Virus record (IMG/VR): IMGVR_UViG_2974694417_000001
Location: 60,580 to 124,579 of that record
Reading direction: 5' to 3' (one strand)
Length of the DNA stretch: 64,000 nucleotides
Origin: a virus
Shown here: positions 1,911-61,648 of the stretch, piece after piece
How positions within the stretch are numbered: position 1 is the stretch's first letter
Layout: every line of letters starts with the position of its first letter
The notes under the pieces: model-generated
Told to the model about the DNA's origin: nothing
Databases searched by the model: none
Seen by the model: only the letters and a program-made list of their open reading frames with translations
Position numbers and translations under genes: made by a program

Positions 1911-2452
1911 TGGAAAAAGTTAAAATTTATTTCGCAAGCCCACTTTTCTCAGCAATGGAACAATCATTCAATCGTGATTTAGTTGAGGAATTGCGAGCAC
2001 AAATCTATTTCACACAACTTTCAGAACAGGTTGAGGTGGAAATCTATTTACCTCAAGAGAATGAGGCAATCAACGACAAGTCAGCTTATGCGGATTCTAA
2101 AATGATTGCTCAAGCTGACACAAAAGAGTTGCTGGAGTCTGACCTTGTATTAGCTATCCTTGACGGTGTTACAATTGATGCAGGTGTTGCGAGCGAAATT
2201 GGCATTGCTTATGCTACAGGTATTCCAGTTATTGGATTATATTCTGATGTTCGACAAGGTACACATAACAATCAACAAAAGATTAAAGCACTTGATGAAA
2301 TTGCTGAGTCTCAATTCTCTTATATCAATCTATACACAGCAGGATTAGTAAAATCTAATGGTGTTATTACTGGAACTGTTTCAGAATTTATTGATGTAGT
2401 AATGGATGATGTTGAAAAATTAATCAAAGACAAATTAGAAGAGGTAAAATAA
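1910..2452 (+). CDS. Nucleoside 2-deoxyribosyltransferase family protein
   Basis: IYFASPLF, YLPQE, D...SDLVLAILDG..IDAGVASEIGIAYA motifs. Confidence 0.88.
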   Translation: MEKVKIYFASPLFSAMEQSFNRDLVEELRAQIYFTQLSEQVEVEIYLPQENEAINDKSAYADSKMIAQADTKELLESDLVLAILDGVTIDAGVASEIGIAYATGIPVIGLYSDVRQGTHNNQQKIKALDEIAESQFSYINLYTAGLVKSNGVITGTVSEFIDVVMDDVEKLIKDKLEEVK

Positions 2453-2453
2453 A

Positions 2454-3113
2454 TTGAAAACACTAATTAACAAGCCAACATTTCAATATGCTTATATCTC
2501 GCTTATCGTACTTGCTCAATTAGCAGTGCTCTTCACAGTTAAAACACCTATTATTCAATGGGTATCAGGTCTTTCAGGTGCATTATACGTATCAACTCTA
2601 ACATTCAGCAAAAAATATACTTTCTTGGTTGCTCTTGTGTTTAATACGACAATGTTGTTTATTGGTATTAAACACGGTATCTTATCAGAAAGTATTCAAC
2701 AACCATTATTTATGGCAATGGGTATCATTGGATTCATTCACATGAACTTCAAAGGGCGATACAAATTTATCAATAACACTCTTCAACGAATTAAAAATAT
2801 TGAAGTTTGGAAAATTCTCTTACTTAGTGTAGTTGTTATGATAGTATGGACTTTCATCTCTAAAGGTCTCGGTTCTCCTATTTGGTGGAAAGATGGAATC
2901 CTCGGTGGTGTAGCTATCTCAGCACAGCTATTCTCTATTGCAGGAAACAAATACAGTTGGTTCTACTGGATGACACTCAATGCTCTTACGACTTGGACAT
3001 GGTTCACTTTAGCGACACCTAATGTTACTATGGGTGTTCTATATCTAATCTTTCTTGTGAACTCAATCTTTGGTTACATTTTCTGGAATGTATCTAATAA
3101 AGAAAGCCTTTAA
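2454..3113 (+). CDS. pnuC: PnuC-family nucleoside/vitamin transporter
   Basis: TTG start with GAGGT RBS; multi-TM protein with WKDG...AQLF...KYSWFYWMTLN motif typical of Pnu transporters. Confidence 0.75.
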   Translation: MKTLINKPTFQYAYISLIVLAQLAVLFTVKTPIIQWVSGLSGALYVSTLTFSKKYTFLVALVFNTTMLFIGIKHGILSESIQQPLFMAMGIIGFIHMNFKGRYKFINNTLQRIKNIEVWKILLLSVVVMIVWTFISKGLGSPIWWKDGILGGVAISAQLFSIAGNKYSWFYWMTLNALTTWTWFTLATPNVTMGVLYLIFLVNSIFGYIFWNVSNKESL

Positions 3114-3126
3114 TAGGCTTTTTATT
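3103..3126 (+). terminator. Intrinsic terminator
   Basis: AAAGCCT-ttaat-AGGCTTT followed by a T run at the pnuC stop. Confidence 0.7.
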
Positions 3127-3133
3127 GTGTCAC

Positions 3134-3162
3134 TTGACAAACCATGAAAAATATGGTATAAT
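3134..3162 (+). promoter_or_regulatory. sigmaA-type promoter (nrdD/nrdG)
   Basis: TTGACA-17 bp-TATAAT with TG extension. Confidence 0.9.
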
Positions 3163-3191
3163 ATAACTTGTATAGAAATTGGAGGAAATAG

Positions 3192-6019
3192 ATGGAAAAT
3201 TTATTTGTTGTTAAGAAAAGAACAGATGAGAAACAAGAAAGGGTGACGGAAGAATGGAACTTCGATAAGGTAATTTCTGCCTGTCAAAAGTCAGCCCAAC
3301 ACATAGATAAATCTCTAACTAAAGAACAAATTGAGAGTTTAGAATATTTAGTTGACAAATCTATTAACAAGCGTAGAACTAAAATATTAAATAATAGAGG
3401 TGTCCCATTCAGAGAAATTTTAAATAATATCCCTGTGGAAGAAGTCCACGAAATGGTGCAAGATGCTTTGAGATTGCTTGATGTTGATATATATAAGTCA
3501 TATCATGAATATCGAAATTATAAAATATCACAAGATAAGCATTACCGTGAACTATACAAAGATTTGGATAGTCTTAAGAATGGAATTTATACTGAGAATG
3601 CAAACAAAGATAGCTCTATTAATTCAACCAAGCGTTCTCTTCTTGCTGAAATGACTCAAAAGAAAATTGTGACTGACTTTATTCTTCAAAAGAACTGGGC
3701 TAAGGCTCATGAAGAAGGATGGATTTATATTCATGACTTAGGAGATTTGTACTGGAGAAGTTTCAATTGTGATAACGTTGATTTAGCAAATATCATTAAG
3801 ACTAAAAAGCAAAAAGATGGAGAATATGCTTTTACTTTAAATGGTATTAAATATCCTGAACCTAAATCAATTAGTTCAGCTTTTAACTTAGTGGCAGATT
3901 TGATTTTACAGATGTCTAGCCAACAGCATGGAGGTCTTAGTGTTCAGAACTTTGACCATTGCCTAGCACCTTATGCAAAATTAACTTACGATAAAGCATT
4001 CAAAAGATATATGGAAAAGGGAATTGCATATAATACAGCACGTGAAATGGCAGAAGAAGATACTCTTTATGCAATCAAACAAGGTGTTCAAGGGTTTGAA
4101 CTTGAAATAAGTACTATCTCTAATGCACTAGGACAAATTCCATTTACATCAATTGGTTTTGGATTGGATACCTCTAAATGGGGTCGTGAAATTACTCGTG
4201 CTTTCTTGCTCGAACGTTCTGAACCAGATTGTGTGCTTGTCTTTCCTAAATTAATATTTGCTAGTGCTAAAGAAGTTAACTTGAATCCTGATTCACCTAA
4301 CTATGATTTATTCCAATTGGCTATTAAATGCAGTTCAACTAAATTATATCCTGATTACGTTTCAATGGATAATGGTATTCTTGCACCTGCATATAGTCGT
4401 CATAAAGATGACTTAGACCAAATTTTATCAGTACCAATGGGTTAGTTGGTGAAAATGTAGCCCATTTAAAACCTTGTGAACCTCTCTTAGAGGGTGTGGA
4501 TTAATATAATCTGCTAACAGTTAGGTCTTATTGATGTTTGTAGCAATCTTTAAGATGAGACTGTGCCAAGCCAAAACTCTGTTTTGGAAGGTGCAACGAC
4601 TATCCGTGATGAGTGTAGCGGAGCTTAGAAATAAGATATGTTTTAAAAACATATAGACCATGAGATAAGAACATGGTCGGAGCGCAAGGCAACTTTATGT
4701 TGATGATATAGTCTGTCCCATTGGTGACAATGGATTTTAGAGAAAATCATAACTCTAAACAAAGTACGTGCAGAAGCTACAATAATGTTGAATTTATTAA
4801 TCCTTTAGAGGATTCAGAAGACTTCCAAAAGGAAGTTTATAAAGGACGTGGAAATGTTGGTGTAGTAACAATTAATTTCCCTAAAATTGCTATCGAATCA
4901 GGTGGTGACTGGAATAAATTCTATGAATTACTACATAAATATACAAATATGACGATGGATATCTTAGATTGGAGATATTATTATGCTGGAGAAGCTAGAG
5001 CAGAAAGCAATCCTCTAATGTGGATGGAAGGTGGAGCATGGAGACGACTCAACCATGATGAAAAAATCTCTAAAACAATCTTTAATTTTTCTTCATCTAT
5101 TGGATTGATTGGATTCAACGAAACTTTGAATTATATGTATTTAAATAATGGATATGAAATTAATAACTTACCAGATTATAAAAAAGGTGGTCAACGTCAA
5201 CAAGACCAAATGAAATTAATGGAAGTCCTTAATTCAATTAAAGAATTTAGAAACATCCATGACGCTGTTCGTATTGATGAAGATGGTGTTCAAACTCGTG
5301 TTTGGGATGAAGAAGGAAACTTTGTTCACCCAGACCCAGACAAGAAATACCTTGAAGTTTATGAAAAGTTAGACACCACACACAAAACAACTATTATACC
5401 TCGTATGTATTCTATCTATGGAACACCTGCTGAATCTCTTGTGTATAAAATGATGAAGCAATTACAAAAACAATATGGATTCATTAATGGTGTTACGGCT
5501 CAAGAAGATGGAAAAGGACGTAATTATATTACTAACTCATTCCACCAACCAGTGTGGGTAGAATCAAATGTGTTTGATAAGATTGATTTTGAAGCACCTT
5601 TTCATTTAGATAAAATGGCAAGTGGTGGACATATTAGTCAAAATGAATTTGCATTCGGAACAGCGGTGACAATTCTTGAACAAACTGTTAAATATGCAAT
5701 GGAGAAAGGGATGTATTACGGCATCAATATTGCATCTAGTCATTGCTTCGATTGTGGTTGGAGTGGAGAGACAGCAGATACTTGTGTTGAATGCAACTCA
5801 GAGAATGTCGTAACGATAAATAGAGTTTGCGGATATATGTCTATTACATCACGCAATGGACACAGTGTTGTCAATGCTGGTAAGACAGAGGAATTACTTG
5901 AACGTGTTAATCACTTTGGAAATGCTAAGAAAGAATATACTAAAAACTTTGAGAAAAAACATGACATACAAAGGGATGTTGTATCGAAAGAGTTCTCAAT
6001 GTTTGAATCAGGAGAATAA
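3192..6019 (+). CDS. nrdD: Anaerobic (class III) ribonucleotide reductase; exons 3192-4442 + 4769-6019, 833 aa spliced
   Basis: N-terminal ATP-cone-like region. Splicing restores PMG|CRS (thiyl-radical Cys). YGTPAESL, CxxC...CxxC and RVCGY glycyl-radical loop are present. Confidence 0.93.
4443..4768 (+). mobile_element. Group I intron in nrdD (326 nt, no ORF)
   Basis: Exon ends in U with P1 AUGGGU|UA...UAGCCCAU. Core GCAACGACUA and GAUAUAGUC (P7) present, terminal G4768, exons join in frame. Confidence 0.92.
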
Positions 6020-7941: not shown

Positions 7942-10900
7942 TTGACAGTCACAAAGATTGAAACAAAAGAATCAGTAACACCAGAGTATTTTATGCTCAA
8001 CAACCAACTAAATATCGTTAAAGACGGTAAAATTCAGTTGAACGCAGACAGAGAAGCTGTCCATAGCTATTTCATTGATTACGTAAACCCTCATACAGTC
8101 TATTTTGGAGACTTACGTGAGAAGCTTGACTATTTAGTGAAACACAAGTATATTAAAGGCGAAGTACTTGATAAATATACTTTCAAATTTATTAAAAAAT
8201 TATTTAAAACTTTGTACAACAAGAAATTTCGATTTACAACTTTCATGGGTGCTTATAAATTTTACACACAGTATGCTATGCGCACCACAGATAACAAGTC
8301 AATTCTTGAACGATATGAAGACCGCATTGCTTTTAATGCCTTAGTTATGGCTGATGGTGACGAACAATTGGCTCTTAACATTGCGCATGAAATGATTTCA
8401 CAAACCTATCAACCTGCAACACCAACATTCTCTAATGCTGGTAAGTTGCGTGGTGGTAATGCTGTATCATGTTTCCTTTTGAATATTGAAGATAATATGA
8501 CGTCTATTGGGCGCTCAGTAAATTCAGTTCTTCAATTGTCTAAAATGGGTGGTGGAGTTGGAATCAACTTAACTGATATCCGTCCGTCAGGAGACCCTAT
8601 CAAGGGTATTGAGAATATGGCTGATGGAGTTGTTCCAATCATGAAACTCTATGAAGATTCATTTTCATATGCCAATCAGTTGGGGACAAGAAATGGGGCA
8701 GGAGTAACTTATCTCAATGTATTCCATAAAGATATTGTTAAATTCCTCTCTACAAAAAAAGAAAATGCTGACGAAAAAGTTCGTGTTAAAACTCTTTCTC
8801 TCGGTGTTGTAGTTCCTGATAAATTCTATGAACTCATTGCTAAAGGTGAATCAATGTATTTGTTTAGCCCTTATGATATCTACAATGAGTATGGAAAACT
8901 AATGTCTGAAATCAACATCACAGAAATGTATGATGAATTAGTTGAAAACAAAAATATCAAGAAAGATAAAATCTTTGCTCGTGACCTTGAAGAAGAAATG
9001 TCTAAACTTATTCAAGAATCAGGATATCCATACATCATCAACATTGATACAGCAAACCAAGAAAATGCTGTTGACGGTGTAATTAAAATGTCTAACCTTT
9101 GCTCTGAAATCCTTCAAGTACAATCTCCATCAGAATTGAACTCAGACCAAACTTATAAGACTATTGGAACTGACGTATCATGTAACCTTGGTTCAACTAA
9201 TATTACACATCTTATGGAGTCATCTGACTTCGGAAGCTCTGTTAGAACAGCATTTCGTGCATTAGCCTATGTTGCAGATAGCTCTAACATTGAAGAAGTT
9301 CCTACTGTTAAGAACGCCAACGATAAGTATCACTCAGTAGGGTTGAAAATCGCCTAGCTCTACTATAAAATTTTGCTATATGCTGGAAACTCTTAAAGAT
9401 ATTGATACTTGAATCTTACCAATTCGCAAAAGTAAAAATTCAATATATAGATAGACAATCAGCAGGGAAGTCGTGGTTGACCCCTCAGAGACTACACGCA
9501 GAACAACTTAACCAAAAAAAAAAAAAAATACCCACTTAACTACTATTATAGAAAGGAGAACACATGGAAGAATTATGGTCTAATATTGATGGTTTTAATA
9601 GCAAATACCTTATAAGTTCTTTAGGTAGAATTAAAATTAAGGATAATACATCTAAAAGAATTAATAACGGTGTTTTGTGTAATTATCATCAAAAGGAAAT
9701 GATAAAATCTATAAAAATAAACGATAATAAAAATGAATATGTGAGAGTTTCTCTAGTTCATAATGGTGATAATAAAACAAAAACAGTTTATATACACAGA
9801 TTGGTTGCAAAGGCATTTATTCCTAATCCTAAAAACCTACCAGAAGTAAACCACATAAATGATAAGAAGAGTGACAATAGAGTTGAGAATCTTGAATGGT
9901 GCGATAAAAGCTATAACATGAAACATGCAATAGAATATCTTAGTTTCAAAGCTGACACCTCCAATTTACATGACAAAAGACCTGTTTATCAAATAGATAA
10001 AGACACTGATGAGATAATTAAATCTTTTGATAGTATCACTCAAGCTACCAGAGAAACAGGGGTTTTGCACATCTCTGGTGTTTGTTTGGATAACAGACGT
10101 ACAGCTGGTGGATTTAAATGGAAATATAAAGAATAACAACTAATGGTTAAGTTGAAGATATAGTCCAAACCCTAGACAAATATCTCGAAAGAGAGGGTAT
10201 TTTCATTGTAGGCGCAATGGGGCTACATGGATTCCTTGCTAAAAACGGAATCCTCTATGGTTCTCCTGAATCAATTGAGTTCACAGGTATGTACTTCCAA
10301 CTCCTAAACTATTGGACTTTGTTTGAAAGCAATCAAATTGCTATTGAACGCAATCAAGCCTTCTATAACTTTGATAAGTCAGAATATGCAAATGGTAAAT
10401 ACTTCAAACGCTATCTACCACGTGTTAAATTCAAAAACAATCTTTCTGATACAGTTAAAGATTTGTTTAAAGACATTGATATTCCAACTGTACAAGACTG
10501 GGCTGACTTACAATCTTCAATCGAAGAACATGGTTTATATAACTCTTATCGTTTGGCAGTTGCTCCTTAACAACCTAGGGCGCTTAAAAATTAATTTAAG
10601 TGTAAACCTCTTTGAACTGCTGGGAAACCTTACTGCGTAATGGCAAAGGCAATCAGCAACGAAGCTTTAGTAATTTAATTAAATTATTAAAGAACGCTCA
10701 ACGACTATTCCGTAGCTGGAAGTAGGTATCGAGTGATACCGAAGTGGAGAGGGTCTTACAATTGTAAGGCAAGATATAGTCTGCTCTATATAGAAATATA
10801 TAGCAGTTAAAGTTTCATAACGACTTTAACGGTGTGAGCCTAACGAACTCATGCGAACAAAAGGACAGGTTCTATTAGTTATGTTAATGAAGCTACAGCA

Positions 10901-13979: not shown

Positions 13980-16400
13980 ATGTCAAAAGTAAAATTAGTA
14001 AAAGCTGTGAATTGGAATCGGCTGGAAGATAACATTGACCGTGCAACTTGGGATAAATTGATTTCGCAGTTCTGGGTCAGCTCACGTGTACCCGTTTCAA
14101 ATGACATGGGAGATTGGGGTAAATTGTCTGCCCCAGAGAAAGATTTGTTCAATAAAGTTTTTGGAGGGTTGACACTACTTGATACTTTGCAGGGTGAAGT
14201 CGGTAACAATGAGATTGCAAAAGATTCTCGTACTCAACATGAACTGGCTGTGTTCAGGAACATCTCATTTATGGAAGAGATAGAAAGCATTGTTTCTTTA
14301 GCTTAAAGAAATTTAAGCTTGGTAAAACCTATCTAAACAGGGGAACTCTGACCGTGTAAGACGAAGACAATCCTGTACTAAATTTATTGAAAGGAGACAA
14401 AATTGAAAATAATTGGAAGTAGAACTTATGAAAATATTTTATATAAAAGAATCTTTACTATACATAAAGGTATGCTAGGGCGGTGTTACAATCCTAATGA
14501 TACAAGTTATTCTACGTATGGTGCTAAAGGTGTTACAGTTGATGAACATTGGCACAATCTTGATAATTTTATCGAAGATATTGATAAAATCGATGGGTTT
14601 GATTACAATAAGTTCATTAAAGCTGAGATTCAACTTGATAAAGATTTTAAACAAATTGGTGTTAAAAATAAAGTATATTCATTAAATACATGTGTATTTT
14701 TAAGTCGTTCTGATAATTGTGGGAATAGAAATAACAATCAAGATATGATTATCATTGACCCTGACGGTAATAAATATGAATCACGTAATCGTGAAAAATT
14801 CTGTCGTGAACATAACTTAGACACACGTCATGCACATGCAGTTCTACAAGGTAAAAATCCACACCACAAAGGTTGGCAATTTTTCTATAAAGAAACATTC
14901 AATCCAGCAAATGTTGTACTTAAACAAATCATACTTGGTACAAATTCAGATGGCGATGAATTTTTGTTTAATAATATATCAACATTTGCTAAGGAACAGA
15001 ATCTTTCTGCCCCAAATATTTCAATGGTTTTGTCTGGTAAAAATAAAACTCACAAAGGATGGACTTTTAAAATTATCCAAAAGGGTTTTACTATTCAATA
15101 ATAAATGTGCAACGACTATCGAAAGGATAGCATTTCTCACAGTATAATTCTAGGGGAGATGTGAATAACCAAGTAGAGTAGAGTTTAAGTAAACTCGAAA
15201 TGGTAGGACATATCATTTACTTAAAAGTATGATATGTAAGATATAGTCTGAACTATATAGAAATATATAGAGTGTGAGTAACGAACACACACAACAGCAT
15301 TGACATGCGGAATCTTATTCAACAATCTTCTCAACTTTCTGTACTATGAAAGAGATTGATGGAATATTTGAGTGGACTGCAACAAATCCTTATATTGTTA
15401 AGAAAACAGAAATCGTTCAAGATATCTACGAAAATGGAACTCCTCTACAAAAGAAAATTGCATCAGTATTCTTGGAATCCTTCCTTTTCTACTCAGGATT
15501 CTTTACACCCTTGTATTATGCTGGACTCGGAAAGATGAAAAATACAGCCGAGATTATAAAATTAATTTTGAGGGATGAGTCGGTTTTGTAAGTGAGCTGA
15601 CTTAGGTATTTTGCCTTAGCGAAACCACAATCCTAAACAGGGAAACTCTCTCGCAGACAATCCTGTGTTAAATTATTGTAAAAACCTTTTGATAAACTCT
15701 TTATCTTTTTTAAGATGATGAAGATTGGGAGTTTATCAAAAAGGAAGAAGTACAATATAAAGACTCAACGACTATCGAAAGGCAGTTAATAGCTCTAGGG
15801 GCTATTAATGAAACCAAGTAGAGTACAGCCAAGTGGTAAGCAATGTATGTGAAAATGGCATGCAGATAAGTCTTTTAAATGGAAATGGAGTATGTGGGGT
15901 GTTGACTAACAACAACACTAAGATATAGTCTCAGCGTCCATAGTGATATGGAGAAGTTCATCAGAGAACTGCATAGAATTTACGACTCTATGTGAAGGTA
16001 CTATCACGGATATTACATTGGCTACAAGTTTCAAATTGGATATAATGAATTAACAGAAGCTGAACAAGAAGAGTTAGAAGAATGGACATTTGATTTACTT
16101 GATAAGCTATATCAAAATGAATTGAAATATACTGAACTTCTTTATGATACTGTGGGTTATACAGAGGATGTGAAACAATTCCTTAAATATAACGCAGATA
16201 AAGCTCTTATGAATCTTGGATTCGACACTTTATTTGAAGTTGGTCGTGAAGATATCAATCCACTTGTAATGAATGGTATCTCAACTGAAACAGCTAACCA
16301 TGATTTCTTCTCAGCGGTAGGTAATGGATATCTCCTTGGAGAAGTCGAAGCTATGAAAGACGATGACTACGCTTTGATTAAAGAAAAACTCAATAAATAA
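13980..16400 (+). CDS. nrdF: Class Ib ribonucleotide reductase beta subunit; exons 13980-14281 + 15303-15584 + 16004-16400, 326 aa spliced
   Basis: NWN..ED, QFW, GLTLLDTLQ. Splicing restores MEEI|HAESYS and RDESV|HGYYIG. ESFLFYSGF, KYNADKALMNLG, NHDFFS. Confidence 0.93.
14282..15302 (+). mobile_element. Group I intron 1 of nrdF (1021 nt) with HNH endonuclease in the P6 region
   Basis: P1 GAAGAGAU|...GUUUCUUU with U.G pair; GCAACGACUA and AAGAUAUAGUC core; terminal G15302. Confidence 0.93.
14403..15101 (+). CDS. Intron-encoded HNH-type homing endonuclease with two C-terminal NUMOD1/IENR1-like repeats
   Basis: GMLGRCYNPN..SYSTYGAKGVTV..W...F...LDKD...YSLNTCVF...DN; repeats FCREHNL...VLQGK..HHKGWQF and FAKEQNL...VLSGK..THKGWTF; TTG start with AAGGAG. 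Confidence 0.85.
   Translation: MKIIGSRTYENILYKRIFTIHKGMLGRCYNPNDTSYSTYGAKGVTVDEHWHNLDNFIEDIDKIDGFDYNKFIKAEIQLDKDFKQIGVKNKVYSLNTCVFLSRSDNCGNRNNNQDMIIIDPDGNKYESRNREKFCREHNLDTRHAHAVLQGKNPHHKGWQFFYKETFNPANVVLKQIILGTNSDGDEFLFNNISTFAKEQNLSAPNISMVLSGKNKTHKGWTFKIIQKGFTIQ
15585..16003 (+). mobile_element. Group I intron 2 of nrdF (419 nt, no ORF), apparent terminal A instead of G
   Basis: P1 GAGUCGGU|UU pairs with GAGCUGACUU (U.G at the splice site). P10 GUGA pairs with 3' exon UCAC. CUCAACGACUA and AAGAUAUAGUC core. Only this junction restores DESVHG. Confidence 0.85.
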
Positions 16401-22179: not shown

Positions 22180-25100
22180 ATGACAGACTTAAACGCATTA
22201 ACATACCAAAACATTCACTCACACAGTTTTTATTCAAATATTTCAACACATGACTCAGTTATCTCTCGTACAGATGTAGCAGAGCGTGCTGTTGAGCTAG
22301 GGCATACAACCTTATCATGTATTGAGCATGGTTATATGGGGAACGTATTTGAAACTTATAGAATTGCTAAACAATTTAATCTTAAACTAATCTTTGGAAC
22401 AGAGTTCTATTATGTTAAAGACCGCTTCGAGAAAGACCGTACTAACTCTCACTTGCTCGTTGTAGCTAAGAATGAGAATGGGAAAGAGGCTATTACAGGG
22501 CTTATTTCAGAATCATATCAAACTGGATTCTATGGACGTAACCGTATTGACGAAGAATTATTATTCTCTCTTCCAAAAGATGATGTTATTGTAACGACTG
22601 CTTGTATTGCAAGCCCTATTAATCTTTATGAGGGATATGCTGAGTACTTCATTCCAAAAGCTAAAGCTTATTTTGGCGACAACTTCTTCTTGGAAGTTCA
22701 ACCACATTGGAATAAAAAGCAAGCTGACTTTAATAAAAAGTTAGTTGAATACCGTAAAGAATATAATGTTCCTTTTATCTTAGGTGTTGATACTCATTAT
22801 ATCAAAGAAGAAGATTATAAAATGCGTGACATCTATCTTAAATCTCGTAAAATTGTTTATGATAAAGAGGAGGGGTTCTTCATGGACTATCCTGAAACAA
22901 AAACAATCATTGAGAGATTTAACAAACAGGCTGTATTGAGTGACGAACAAATCACAGAAGCTTTTAATAACAGCCATATTGTTGATGAGTTTGATTCTAT
23001 TGAGATTACCGATGATATTAAAATGCCATCAGTTTACCCAGATAAAACAGAAGAAGAAAAGGTTGAGATTCTTAAAAAGCATATTAATAAAGCTTGGATT
23101 GAAGACCGTAAGCATATTCCGAAAGAACGTCATAAGGAGTATATCGAAGCTATTAAATCAGAGATGTCTATTGTAGAGAATACTCACATGACAGATTACT
23201 TCTTGATGAATGAAAAAATTATTAGTTTAGGAAAAGAGAAATATGGTGGAGTCTTGACTAAGACAGGAAGAGGGAGCGCACCTTCTTTCTACTTAAATAA
23301 ACTACTTGATTTTACAGCAGTAGACCGTGTCAATTCGCCATTAAAATTATATCCTACTCGATTTATGTCTGAATCACGTATACTAGAGGCAAAAAGTTTA
23401 CCAGATGTGGATTTTAATACGGCTAATCCAGAACCTTTTATGAGAGCTCAGAAAGAAATTTTGGGAGAAGATAATGCCTATCAAATGATTGCTTATGGTA
23501 CAATGCAAGAAAAAGATGCTTTCAAAACATATTGTCGTGGGTTAGATATACCAAAAAATGAATATTGGACAATTGCCGATGACCTTGAACGTTGGGTTAA
23601 AACTGATAAATGGCGAGATATCATTAAAACTAGCCAACAATTCATTGGTGTTGTCACTTCATTTTCACCTCACCCATGTTCATCATTACTTTTGTCAGAC
23701 CCTATCTCTCGCAAGATTGGTGTCATTAAGACAAAAGAAGGTGTAGATGTTGCTTTAATTGGTTCGTATGATTCAGATGTTTATAAATATCTTAAAAACG
23801 ACTTATTAGTTGTTACTGTTTGGGACATTATCGCTAAAGTATGTAAAGAATTAGATATTGAAATTCCTGATGTGCGTACTCTTACAAAACTAGTAGAGAA
23901 TAATGATAAAGTATGGGACTTGTATAAAGATGGAATGGTTGCAACTCTTAATCAAGCTGGAACACCTTCTGGCAAGCCACAAGTTATGCAATATAAACCT
24001 CAAAGTGTTCGTGAATTAAGTATGTGGGTTGCAGGTATTCGCCCTTCATTCGCAAGTATGAAATCCTATTTCTTAAATAGACAACCTTTTAGCTATAACA
24101 TCCCAGCCTTTGATAAACTTCTTAAGGATAGTGATAATTTCGTGCTCTTCCAAGAATCAATTATGGCAACCTTACAATTCGCTGGGTACGAAGAAGATGT
24201 TACTTATGGACTTCTTAAAGCTATTGCCAAGAAGAAAAAAGGTATTATTGAACCTATCCACGACAAATTTATTGAGGGATTCGTAGCTAAAACTGGTTCA
24301 GAAGAACAGGCTTTAAAAGTTTGGACTATCATTGAGAATGCCGTTGGGTAAACGGAGGTATCTTCAATGCAAAATAAAAAATTTAAAAACAATTATATTC
24401 TGACAGAAAAAGATAAAAAATTATTAATAGATTTATACTATCAAAACATCAAATTTAAAGAAATGAAAGAAATTACCAATTTTCCTTATCGAAAAATACG
24501 TGATTTCTTTAAAAACAATAATCTTAATTTGGTTAAAAGATATACTTTAAATGAAAATTATTTTGATAGTATTGACAATGCAAAGCAAGCTTATTGGTTA
24601 GGTTACTTATGGACTGATGGATTTGTTGGTTCTGGTAAATACAATAATATTGTACTTTCTAGTATTGATGAAAATGTAGTAGATGAATTTAACAAAGATA
24701 TATCACTAGTTGGTATAAATTTTAAGAAGGTTCATACTGATAGAAGTAATTCTTATGGTAACAAAACTTTATTTGAATCTCGATTTTCTTCATATAAAAT
24801 GGCTGAAAATCTAAGACACTATAATATTACAGCCAATAGAAAAGAAACTAATTTTTTACCAGTTGAAAATATTCCATCAAAAATTTTAAAATATGTACTC
24901 TTTGGGATGCTTGATGGAGATGGTAATCTTGGAGCTAGAGGTGGAAATCTAATTTCAGTAAACATATATGCAACTTCAAATAATTTAGATTCATATATAA
25001 ATTTTGTCAAACTATTAAATTTATCTTATTCTGTTAACTATCATAAAGAAAAAGAATGTAATTATATCCGTTTTCTTTTAAAAGATGATTTCACTAGAGA

Positions 25101-26439
25101 AATAATAAAAGAATATCTAGCCACATCTCTCATAAAAAGAAAATCTGCCCCTTTACTATCGTGAGATAGTGTCGAAAACAGTTTAAACTGCTGGAACTCC
25201 CTAAAGACATATTAACTACAACGTAACTAGAAATGGTAAGCGTGAATGTTGCGAAAGCAGAAAAAATAATATGTATGACCTATGTTGAAATAAAAGCCGA
25301 AAGGTACTAAGGGTTTGGACAATGGGAAATCAGCAACGAAATTCCTTCAAAGGAAGACGCTCAACGACTATAATAGCTGATAGATTATAAATCTATATTG
25401 TATAGTTCTACTCCGTAATAAATATGACGAAAGTCACGGTATAAAGGATAGTTTTAACTCATCACACGCTTACTCTGTAGCCCTTGATTCATTATATGGT
25501 GCATGGCTCAAAGCCAATCATCCATTAGAGTATTTCTCAGTGGTTTTGAATGTTTACAAAAACTCCAAAGATAAACAAGCTGAATTAATTAACGAACTAG
25601 AATACTTTGGAATAACTCTTAAAGGATTACAATTTGGTAAATCTAAATCTGATTATTCTTATGAAACAGAAACAAATACAATCTATAAGGGAATCTCTAC
25701 CGTTGCGTATCTTAATCAACAAGTCTCAGATAACCTCTACAATCTTGCAAACGAGAAACATTATGAAAAAGATGATATTGTTCAACTCTTTCTTGACATC
25801 TTAGATGGTGCTCTTGCCGACAATAGACAAATGAATATCTTGATTAAACTTGGATTCTTTAAAGAATTTGGTGAAGAATCAATACTTCTTGAACTCTACA
25901 ATACGATGACTGGATATCAAGCTAAGAAGCCCAACCCTATCTTTACAGATAACAAAAAGCTTGACGTCAAATACTCACGTACACACAAGGAGAAAACTAA
26001 GCTTGTACGTATTGAAAATATTAAAGAATATTATGGTTTAATCTTGAAAAATGCTCATTTACTTCCTACGACTAATCTATTTGATAGACTTACAAGTGAA
26101 GTTGAGTACATGGGATATGCTGAAACTCTTGACCAAAGTCTTGGAAAAAATGTTTACGTTGTTATGGATATCAATACTAAATATACACCAGTTTATACTC
26201 TATATAATATGTATGATGGACATATCTCTGTTGCCAAGATTGATAAGAAAAAAGCTTATCGTGATACAAAATCAACCAAAGATGGAGAATTAATCATCAA
26301 ACTTGGAGACCAGATTGAAGTTATGGAATTTGCTCAAAGACCTAAAATGGCTTTAGTTGATGGTAAATGGGAATCAAACTATGACCAAATGCAAGATTAC
26401 ATCGAACATGTTCGAATGATTAAACGTTATGAAGATTAA
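22180..26439 (+). CDS. dnaE: DNA polymerase III alpha subunit (DnaE-type, family C); exons 22180-24349 + 25448-26439, 1053 aa spliced
   Basis: PHP domain HSHS/EHG/DTHY, GRGSA, PDVDF, KNDLL. Splicing restores NAVG|YSFNSSHAYS. Confidence 0.93.
24350..25447 (+). mobile_element. Group I intron in dnaE (1098 nt) with LAGLIDADG endonuclease in the P1 loop
   Basis: GGGU| exon end; candidate IGS GCCC at 25147; P2 ACUAUC-GUGA-GAUAGU; P3 CAGUU/AGCUG; CUCAACGACUA core; terminal G25447. Confidence 0.9.
24367..25164 (+). CDS. Intron-encoded LAGLIDADG homing endonuclease (two motifs)
   Basis: AYWLGYLWTDGFV and YVLFGMLDGDGNL; preceded by RYTLNENYFDSID; GGAGG RBS. Confidence 0.88.
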   Translation: MQNKKFKNNYILTEKDKKLLIDLYYQNIKFKEMKEITNFPYRKIRDFFKNNNLNLVKRYTLNENYFDSIDNAKQAYWLGYLWTDGFVGSGKYNNIVLSSIDENVVDEFNKDISLVGINFKKVHTDRSNSYGNKTLFESRFSSYKMAENLRHYNITANRKETNFLPVENIPSKILKYVLFGMLDGDGNLGARGGNLISVNIYATSNNLDSYINFVKLLNLSYSVNYHKEKECNYIRFLLKDDFTREIIKEYLATSLIKRKSAPLLS

Positions 26440-59950: not shown

Positions 59951-61648
59951 TTATTTGAATCTTTTATAAACAGGTGCTTTAATTTTCATGAAGCCATATG
60001 CATCATCATCTGGTTTCTTTCTCTTTCTTTTGCTTTCTGATTCTTCTAAATAAATCCAATAGAGACCATAAGCAAAAGCAGAGTACCTATCTTTTTGTAT
60101 TTTTTGAGATACCTGTTTAACAGTACCTGTATTACCATTATTTACATATTCGAGGTTCATGATTTCATCAACTAATCGGTCTGTCTGAATAAATGGTAAT
60201 AATTTATCAGCTTCTTTTCGTGGGTCTTTTTCTTTGATACTTGCTTGAATCTTAGACTCGGAAGTTAATATTTTAACATCATTGTTCGCAAATGTAGCCA
60301 TGAAGTGGTTAATGATGTTTGAGTTCTTAGTGCCTTTCTTTTGAGCGGATACTGCGAAAATCATAGGAATACTATTTGGTTTCTTATACTCAGCATAACC
60401 ATCATCATTTACAACACTATAAGGAGGGTTGTCATCGATTTCACTTGTTAAGTAATCGACCAATCCCCAACCCATACCATTAATATCGACACAGAGGATT
60501 GTCGCATTGAACTCGTTTACTTTTTGTTTCAAGAACTTGGCTTGATTCTCAAAGTGACTACCTTGCATTGTGAAAATATTAACTAAATGCTTAGTATAAG
60601 TTCCATCTCCTCTATCCTCAATACGTATTACTGCCAAAGAACTATTGGCTGTGTTGCCAGTTGTTGCTCTAGCTACGTCGTATGATAGAACGAATCTTAC
60701 ATTAGGATTCTTTTTATCTTCACTATTAATTTTCCACATTGGTTTCTCTAAAACACGAGCTTTACTTATTTCGTCTGCTGAGACTAATGATTTTTCACTA
60801 GAACCAGTAAAGACTGACCTAAACTCACGTTCAAATGAAAGTGGGCTATATGTAGGGTCTTCAAGTTTTTCATTAACATCATCTATATCAAGCGTTCCAA
60901 AATGTGTTCCCATCTCGTAACTCGTCCCAAGAACAATTGTCGGTTTACCCTGCTCCATCTCTTCATATAATGCCCTAAACTTATCATAACAATAAGATTG
61001 CTTATGAGAAGCCGTTGTAACATAAGCTTCTGTTTTAGAGTATTCGTTTTCTTTGTCAACACCATGACCAACAACGTTACGTGCTTGTGCAAGCATTGGA
61101 CGTATAACTTCATTAATTGTTTTTGCGTCCATACGTTCGTCAACTATTTCCTCTAGGGTAATTCCTTGTGCACGTAAACCACGTGAACTTTCACCTACTG
61201 TAAGAGTATCTAGTGTTGAACCGTTTTTGAAGACTAGCTTAACATAATCTTTTTCGAATTTACATTTATTGAAGATTAATTCATTTTTGAGTAATGGATA
61301 ATCTCTCCAAAACTCTTCGAACTTAGACTTAACTACTTTTGCAGATTGTTCTTTAGTTGGCATTGCGACTGCCAAGGCATTATTTGGATATAGAATACAT
61401 TTAACATAATTTGAAAGAAGTTCAATATATGTTTTAGAAATACCACGACTAGCTACAATTCCTACTCTCTTATAACGAAAGAAAGTTCGCATATAAACTC
61501 TTTGGAATGGAAGTAAATCAAACATTGTGGATTCTGTCTTGATATAATCTATGAATCTGTCTGGATACATTCTGAAATATGAAATCATATCTCTAAAACC
61601 ATCTTTAACATCTCCAAAATTATCATTAAATTCTTTAACTGATAACAT
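59951..61648 (-). CDS. Terminase large subunit
   Basis: Walker A-like ASRGISKT, RGLRAQGITLEE (Walker B), VTTA, SYDVAR and KDRYSAFAYG nuclease motifs. Confidence 0.92.
   Translation of the reverse strand: MLSVKEFNDNFGDVKDGFRDMISYFRMYPDRFIDYIKTESTMFDLLPFQRVYMRTFFRYKRVGIVASRGISKTYIELLSNYVKCILYPNNALAVAMPTKEQSAKVVKSKFEEFWRDYPLLKNELIFNKCKFEKDYVKLVFKNGSTLDTLTVGESSRGLRAQGITLEEIVDERMDAKTINEVIRPMLAQARNVVGHGVDKENEYSKTEAYVTTASHKQSYCYDKFRALYEEMEQGKPTIVLGTSYEMGTHFGTLDIDDVNEKLEDPTYSPLSFEREFRSVFTGSSEKSLVSADEISKARVLEKPMWKINSEDKKNPNVRFVLSYDVARATTGNTANSSLAVIRIEDRGDGTYTKHLVNIFTMQGSHFENQAKFLKQKVNEFNATILCVDINGMGWGLVDYLTSEIDDNPPYSVVNDDGYAEYKKPNSIPMIFAVSAQKKGTKNSNIINHFMATFANNDVKILTSESKIQASIKEKDPRKEADKLLPFIQTDRLVDEIMNLEYVNNGNTGTVKQVSQKIQKDRYSAFAYGLYWIYLEESESKRKRKKPDDDAYGFMKIKAPVYKRFK

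Follow-up and report, generated by a model that had tools for sequence, protein, structure and literature searches.

Two group I introns at equivalent positions in the nrdF gene of a Lactococcus phage fall into separate clades, each bound to its own site

An nrdF gene interrupted by two group I introns is located in a 64,000-nucleotide stretch of viral DNA (IMG/VR record IMGVR_UViG_2974694417_000001, positions 60,580 to 124,579), which is termed the window here. Sequence comparison confirms that intron 1 and intron 2 split this Lactococcus phage gene at exactly equivalent positions of the two ExxH motifs of the encoded protein (site 1 and site 2). The two introns belong to different clades, each of which is found at its own site in the nrdF genes of other phages, and a direct copy of one intron from the other is rejected. 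In all likelihood, they are members of two separate, old and site-specific group I intron lineages that were brought together secondarily by independent homing.

Structure of the split nrdF gene

The region is 99.4% identical to the Lactococcus phages WRP3, AM4 and AM5 (Audreyjarvisvirus, 949 group), and its public annotation shows nrdF as three separate open reading frames (ORFs) together with one "HNH endonuclease". The gene and its introns are composed as follows.

13980-14281, + strand: nrdF exon 1, ends with GAA GAG AT in the first ExxH motif; located by tblastn against intronless relatives
14282-15302, + strand: intron 1, group I, 1021 nt, at site 1; last base G15302
14292-14298, + strand: internal guide of intron 1, GTTTCTT, pairs with exon AAGAGAT (14275-14281) with a U-G pair at the splice site; found by sequence inspection
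14328-14383, + strand: 5′ core of intron 1 (strands of P3, P4, P5 and P6), from alignments; P3 covaries with 15202-15207
14403-15101, + strand: endonuclease gene of intron 1 (232 amino acids) in the P6 loop; identified by PF22083, phrog_2081 and homologues
15110-15302, + strand: 3′ core of intron 1 (P7, P7.1/P7.2, P3′, P8, P7′, P9), from alignments and an Rfam match
15303-15584, + strand: nrdF exon 2, ends with GAG TCG GT in the second ExxH motif
15585-16003, + strand: intron 2, group I, 419 nt, without ORF, at site 2; located by orthologues and intronless alleles
15592-15603, + strand: guide of intron 2, first GTGA (P10, pairs with TCAC of exon 3, 16004-16007), then GCTGACTT (P1, pairs with GAGTCGGT, 15577-15584)
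15766-16003, + strand: 3′ core of intron 2, with a long P7.2 extension and a P9.1 hairpin, both common to the Enterococcus and Brochothrix introns at site 2
16004-16400, + strand: nrdF exon 3, located by a check of the joined frame

Intron 1 separates T14281 (GAA GAG AT|) from A15303 (A CAT), and intron 2 separates T15584 (GAG TCG GT|) from T16004 (T CAC), as read from the sequence with coordinates verified by script (the bar marks the insertion point). The three exons together form a 981-nt open frame that codes for a full-length NrdF with E99-E-I-H102 and E193-S-V-H196. Precise removal of both introns restores the conserved frame, and alleles without introns exist: P1048 is uninterrupted at site 1 (E-C-I-H), neither site is interrupted in phiL47 and contig L140, and metagenome contigs span site 1 and site 2 without introns. 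Both splice junctions are confirmed by these natural alleles. A preliminary description of this DNA had placed the introns at AT|A CAT (E-E-I-H) and GT|T CAC (E-S-V-H), in each case behind the second nucleotide of the codon that comes before the His ligand; boundaries, intronless alleles and the joined frame agree with this. The nrdF gene of phiL47 aligns in three frames, which indicates two apparent frameshifts.

Judged by their sequences, the two introns belong to one subfamily, which has an IA-type core with P7.1/P7.2. Both form P1 helices with a U-G pair at the 5′ splice site (AAGAGAU/GUUUCUU in intron 1; GAGUCGGU/GCUGACUU, the latter at 15596-15603, in intron 2). P1 of intron 2 was also aligned by cmscan, and in 11 orthologues changes in the exon are matched by changes in the guide. 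The P7 strands GACUA/UAGUC are found in both introns, and the P3 strands covary across the family (CCTATC/GGTAGG, CCACA/TGTGG, CCCATC/GATGGG, CGTAG/CTACG). The two introns differ in the P3, P8 and P9 regions, the P7.2 extension is not present in intron 1, and the current guide of neither intron fits the site of the other.

Rfam model RF00028 matches intron 2 with 36.2 bits (E 4e-7) and the 3′ part of intron 1 with 27.4 bits (E 2e-4), both below the gathering score of 50. The model includes neither the P7.1/P7.2 insert nor the endonuclease gene, and the matches were obtained only when the search was restricted to 1.9 kb; searches of the whole window by gathering score and by E-value returned neither of the nrdF introns. 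One of the seven introns of the window, the nrdE intron at 10558-10853, reaches the gathering score.

The terminal base of intron 1 is G15302 and that of intron 2 is A16003, an A that is also present in WRP3 and P1048. The orthologues of intron 2 (in Carl, 156, A9, phi116 and L055) all end in G instead. The 3′ junction at the terminal A is fixed by P10 (UCAC/GUGA) and by the intronless alleles that code for E-S-V-H. Alternative splice sites that would yield a terminal G were rejected, since each breaks the frame or the ExxH motif. The G-binding pair in P7 of intron 2 is a normal G-C pair. Among the variants listed for the aligned metagenome contigs, none falls at 16003, which speaks neither for nor against the terminal A. 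Codon differences in exon 3 among the phages with intron 2 are mostly synonymous (11 versus 1-2 non-synonymous), which points to purifying selection, suggests that nrdF is expressed in frame in these phages and lends indirect support to self-splicing.

Two clades, each bound to its own site

Introns at site 2 are also found in nrdF of the Enterococcus Kochikohdavirus phages Carl and 156 and of Brochothrix phage A9 (GAG TCG GT|A CAT in all of them), and in nrdF of Mammaliicoccus phage phi116 (GAG TCG AT|A CAT). Every site-2 orthologue splits GT|A CAT or AT|A CAT, and the insertion point is shared by four phage groups, as expected for a site-specific lineage. Over P7 to P7′, the core of intron 2 shares 83% identity with those of Carl and 156 and 79% with that of A9; intron 1 ranks 10th with 65%.

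Six metagenomic nrdF genes carry an intron exactly at site 1. The junctions are GAA GAG GT|A CAT in L224, GAG TCG AT|T CAT in L223, GAG TCG GT|A CAT in L225, GAG TCG GT|G CAC in L227, GAG AGC GT|A CAC in L229 and GAA TCG GT|A CAT in L230. The encoded NrdF proteins are 51-81% identical to the window NrdF over the aligned exon stretches. All six introns have an endonuclease gene in P6 and end in G, and a site-2 intron was not found in any of these six genes. The core of the L224 intron is 89% identical to that of intron 1; in a comparison of P7 to P7′ without the site-1 orthologues, the best match of intron 1 was the recA intron of EFP01 (72%), with intron 2 in 12th place. Intron 1 and the L224 intron interrupt E-E-I/V-H codons and have G(T/C)TTCTT guides, whereas most other site-1 hosts have E-S-V-H codons and guides of the GCTGACTT type. 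The closer homologues of the intron 1 endonuclease (81, 62, 57, 55, 53 and 40% identity) originate from metagenome assemblies, not from cultured phages. Wherever the genomic context was examined, the homologue lies inside nrdF, preceded by a first exon that codes for about 100 residues (about 128 in L229). This lineage of site-1 nrdF introns with endonuclease appears to be widespread and is apparently undescribed: neither the lineage nor a target and guide shared by the two motifs was found described in the literature searched.

A maximum-likelihood tree was calculated from 29 concatenated cores (302 columns; P1-P2 and inserts were left out). The introns at site 2 (intron 2 and those of P1048, Carl, 156 and A9) form a clade with a support of 100/100. 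Intron 1 groups with L224 (99/96) in a clade of five site-1 introns (64/98). In this tree, the site-1 and site-2 clades form a polytomy with the recA, uvsX, polymerase and nrdE introns. In approximately unbiased (AU) tests, an exclusive clade of intron 1, intron 2 and the P1048 intron was rejected (log-likelihood difference 92.8, p 1.8e-45), and so was the grouping of intron 1 and L224 with intron 2 and P1048 (p 3e-18). Earlier AU tests without the site-1 orthologues gave unstable results for a direct copy with three alignments (p 0.29, 0.008 and 0.165) and were disregarded.

The distribution in the 949 group agrees with two separate histories: both introns are absent from phiL47 and L140, P1048 contains intron 2 alone, and WRP3, AM4, AM5 and the window contain the two together. 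Intron 2 of the window differs from that of P1048 at 11 of 419 positions (97.4% identity). A copy made within the 949 lineage would be nearly identical to its source, and the 65% identity of the two introns thus argues against such a copy. The clades are separate and each is tied to its site, which is in essence the outcome that the preliminary description had named as speaking against its proposal. They are not unrelated, however, as that outcome had been phrased, since their endonucleases are near relatives and their guides can be identical.

Origin of the equivalent positions

We suggest the following course of events. The lineage of intron 2 occupies site 2, within the V/I codon that precedes the motif 2 His, in the nrdF genes of phages of Enterococcus, Brochothrix and Lactococcus. 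In the 949 group, where the intron is shared with P1048, it has lost its endonuclease gene. The lineage of intron 1, with its endonuclease gene in P6, occupies site 1 in many nrdF genes of uncultured phages. Within the 949 group it is present only in the WRP3-like phages, and separate homing events would have joined the two introns in one gene. The sequences show the boundaries, the clade membership and the rejection of a direct copy; the route by homing and the order of acquisition are inferred. The resemblance of the introns probably results from their common subfamily and the common family of their endonucleases. The equal phase is probably a consequence of the local code: GAR NNN RTN CAY, split as GAR-NNN-(G/A)T|N-CAY, has one invariant U (position 2 of the hydrophobic codon) for the U-G pair of P1 and the His codon for P10, and in many hosts both motifs are an identical 13-mer.

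The following observations weigh against two separate lineages brought together by homing. The site-1 clade has only 64% ultrafast bootstrap (SH-aLRT 98), and the AU test does not reject a tree that joins it to the site-2 clade as a sister (p 0.30). In L225, L223, L227 and L230, target and guide at site 1 are the same as those at site 2 of A9, Carl and the window, or one base different; motif 1 reads E-S-V/I-H in these four, and the guides are of the GCTGACTT type. Site 1 of L225 is GAGTCGGT|ACATG with the guide GCTGACTT, just as at site 2 in A9 and in the window, and in several hosts both sites read GAGTCGGT|ACATG, paired by one and the same guide. In addition, the endonucleases of the two sites are related. 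In a tree of 31 proteins, for which the root was assumed, the motif-2 enzymes of Carl, 156, P0019 and P0020 group at 93/87, and they join the site-1 enzymes, among which the polymerase-intron enzymes are nested, in one clade at 95/93. Outside this clade are the nrdF enzymes of Staphylococcus phages and the free-standing enzymes whose genes precede nrdF in P1048 and phiL47. A smaller tree of 10 sequences was an unresolved polytomy.

The intron 1 enzyme itself matches PF22083 (C-terminal NUMOD-like DNA-binding domain) in two stretches (E 8.5e-14) and phrog_2081, annotated in PHROG as "HNH endonuclease", at E 3e-107; it matches no Pfam HNH family. The free-standing endonuclease genes lie between the nrdF promoter and nrdF in P1048 (L002:743-1510) and phiL47 (L003:564-1274), and their products are 28-43% identical to the intron 1 enzyme over the shared domain.

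Insertions in nrdF cluster around the two motifs, with four intron sites and one intein site around motif 2, and two intron sites and one intein site around motif 1.

Motif 2, intron sites: site 2; R|D (Listeria phage LMLPA3); I^L and A-Y^ (twin introns, contig L141)
Motif 2, intein site: E|S (L142)
Motif 1, intron sites: site 1; CAT|GCT, 4 nt downstream of it (Staphylococcus phages)
Motif 1, intein site: E|C (L142)
L218:1893-3121 (PSU6) and L220:1389-2621 (184DA): Staphylococcus phage nrdF introns after the His codon of motif 1

From these sequenced insertions, both ExxH motifs are insertion hot spots. Pure convergence might account for the equivalent positions: the two lineages would have been recruited independently from a promiscuous intron family, with the position set by the invariant U, the conserved His codon and the preference of endonucleases for the most highly conserved DNA. 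The intron family occupies at least eight different genes, other elements strike both motifs at other positions, including IVS6 of Bacillus cereus (PMC2248736), and few U positions are available within GAR NNN RTN CAY. Against convergence stands the grouping of the endonuclease clades of both sites, and the endonuclease gene is at the same place, in P6, in both ribozymes. We regard convergence as a serious candidate that falls a little short of being probable.

Two side observations concern the surroundings of motif 2. The 949-like nrdF of L141 (L141:3774-5147) has two introns around a 29-nt mini-exon (about 4079-4107) that codes for L-R-D-E-S-V-H-G-A; they are inserted within the Ile codon before L-R-D-E and within the Tyr codon after H-G-A, and thus not at site 2. 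The nrdF intron of L228 (L228:1477-2979) has its 5′ splice site at R|D, while its 3′ end abuts T CAT GG, a 3′ exon of the site-2 type, and the 11 nt coding for D-E-x-V are gone. It is possibly a chimera of two neighbouring introns in a broken gene.

An ancient switch between the paralogous sites is also conceivable. One of the two lineages would have been founded by a jump between the pseudo-symmetric ExxH motifs, by reverse splicing via the same internal guide or by relaxed recognition of the endonuclease, with or without the endonuclease gene, and each lineage would have been faithful to its site thereafter. This is a claim about origins, separate from and compatible with two lineages joined by homing in the present phage. 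The common clade of motif-2 and site-1 enzymes and the sister relation that the AU test leaves standing speak for it, as does the 43% identity of the intron 1 enzyme to the site-2 enzyme of Carl, together with the shared location of the gene. The targets are compatible as well: besides the agreement of its site 1 with site 2 of A9 and the window, L225 has an empty site 2 (GAGTCAGTACATGG, L225:3662-3682) that differs by one base and could form 8 bp with the guide of its own site-1 intron.

That site is unoccupied, however, and site 2 stays empty in L224, L227 and L229 too, despite this compatibility. The ribozyme tree, with its polytomy, gives no positive support for sister clades, and the root of the endonuclease tree is an assumption. 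Identical guides can be convergent, since a guide must complement its exon, and the polymerase-intron endonucleases that nest in the site-1 group indicate that retargeting is general and not specific for paralogous sites. An ancient switch is possible, although we consider it less likely than not. If true, it would represent a natural transposition of a group I intron to a paralogous site within one gene, made possible by an identical stretch of 13 nt (GAGTCGGT|ACATG) that can code for either motif and be read by the same guide.

A protein-level parallel is seen in L142, an IMG/VR contig of 210,885 bp. One nrdF gene of this contig contains inteins at E|C-V-H (2433-3497) and E|S-V-H (3777-4727). 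The two are homologous (E 2e-17), with 24% identity over the full length and about half of the residues identical among the first 55. By analogy, these two homologous inteins in one nrdF would favour a switch between the motifs.

The preliminary description had instead proposed that, in this gene and phage lineage, one of the present introns gave rise to the other by copying. Such a copy would explain the common subfamily, the equal phase in equivalent motifs, six shared sequence strings and the fact that the introns are the most alike of the seven in the window, yet it is refuted by the sequence comparisons and so improbable that it can be set aside: the exclusive clade is rejected, the 65% core identity compares with 79-83% between intron 2 and orthologues in other phage families, the site-2 clade is fully supported and six orthologues occupy site 1, P3, P8, P9, P7.2 and the guides differ as described above, and each intron is found without the other in many genomes.

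The wider intron family and known systems

The six strings named in the preliminary description occur once each in intron 1 and in intron 2, in the same order, and four of the six are found nowhere else in the window. They are not distinctive for this pair, as had been assumed, since each recurs in 1-10 of 22 other introns (in recA, uvsX, gyrB, terL, nrdE and DNA polymerase genes). The 5′ core motif CTAAACAGGGRAACTC followed by AATCCTGT is present in about 40 further introns from viral and bacterial contigs and many host genes; a 16-mer scan of genome contigs yielded mostly chance matches, with only about 7 that have intron features. The string CAACGACTATCGAAAGG and the element GTAGAGTA are part of a P7.1/P7.2 region, which is common to introns of several genes: recA/uvsX (Enterococcus phages EFP01 and phiEF17H, Staphylococcus phage 184DA), gyrB (PALS_2), terminase (Machias), nrdE, DNA polymerase and others. 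By this comparison, the six strings represent core motifs of a large family of introns that interrupt many genes in Firmicutes phages. In blastn searches with intron 1 or intron 2 against 50,697 phage records, the other WRP3 intron was never returned, although introns of other genera were.

Five further group I introns are located in the window.

4433-4734, + strand: group I intron between the ORFs 3192-4445 and 4721-6019
9358-10216, + strand: group I intron in nrdE
10558-10853, + strand: group I intron in nrdE
about 25165-25540, + strand: group I intron in the gene 24367-26439
37222 to about 38470, - strand: group I intron in the tape-measure gene, with a DUF7487 ORF

Introns 1 and 2 are the most alike pair among the seven. 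The introns labelled A, C and G belong to the other major clade, and a P4 of the UGCUGG type is present in the introns B, F and G.

That the ribonucleotide-reductase genes of phages harbour group I introns with homing endonucleases is textbook knowledge. The pair of pseudo-symmetric motifs adds to this a natural pair of sites for testing how group I introns reach new sites, a question that is open to experiment because the two ExxH motifs can offer identical target and guide pairing.

Introns of the kind described here are already well known (PMC2248736, PMC2504315, PMC3653736), and the split nrdF of A9 has been described (PMC3653736). The introns of A9, Carl and 156 resemble intron 2 in gene, exact site, P7.2 extension, P9.1 hairpin and the guide GCTGAC, and differ from it in their terminal G. 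The Enterococcus introns have an endonuclease gene in P6, whereas intron 2 has none.

The nrdF intron of phi116 is located at site 2 like intron 2, and its 5′ core is the best database match to the 5′ core of intron 1 (76.5%). It differs from both in that it contains no ORF, has a short P7.2 and falls outside the main site-2 clade and the site-1 clade. A position as nearest kin of intron 1 was considered and found to be unsupported once the site-1 orthologues had been added. The phi116 intron may be linked to the nrdF intron of SPbeta.

The nrdF intron of the Twort-like Staphylococcus phages PSU6 and 184DA interrupts the first ExxH motif and belongs to the same ribozyme subfamily as intron 1. 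Its endonuclease gene, in P6, codes for a protein with 39% identity to the intron 1 enzyme, and the P5 loops of the two introns are similar. In contrast to intron 1, it is inserted 4 nt downstream of site 1 (ATC CAT|GCT) and forms a separate clade in the ribozyme and endonuclease trees.

The nrdF intron IVS6 of the B. cereus group, which encodes I-BthII, is a group IA intron beside the second ExxH motif and has been shown to splice and to home (PMC2248736). According to the published coordinates, it is inserted 7 nt downstream of a cut at nt 572 (PMC2248736). It thus probably shares the R|D junction, which lies 11 nt before site 2, with the intron of Listeria phage LMLPA3. Its endonuclease is of the GIY-YIG type and not a member of the family to which the intron 1 enzyme belongs.

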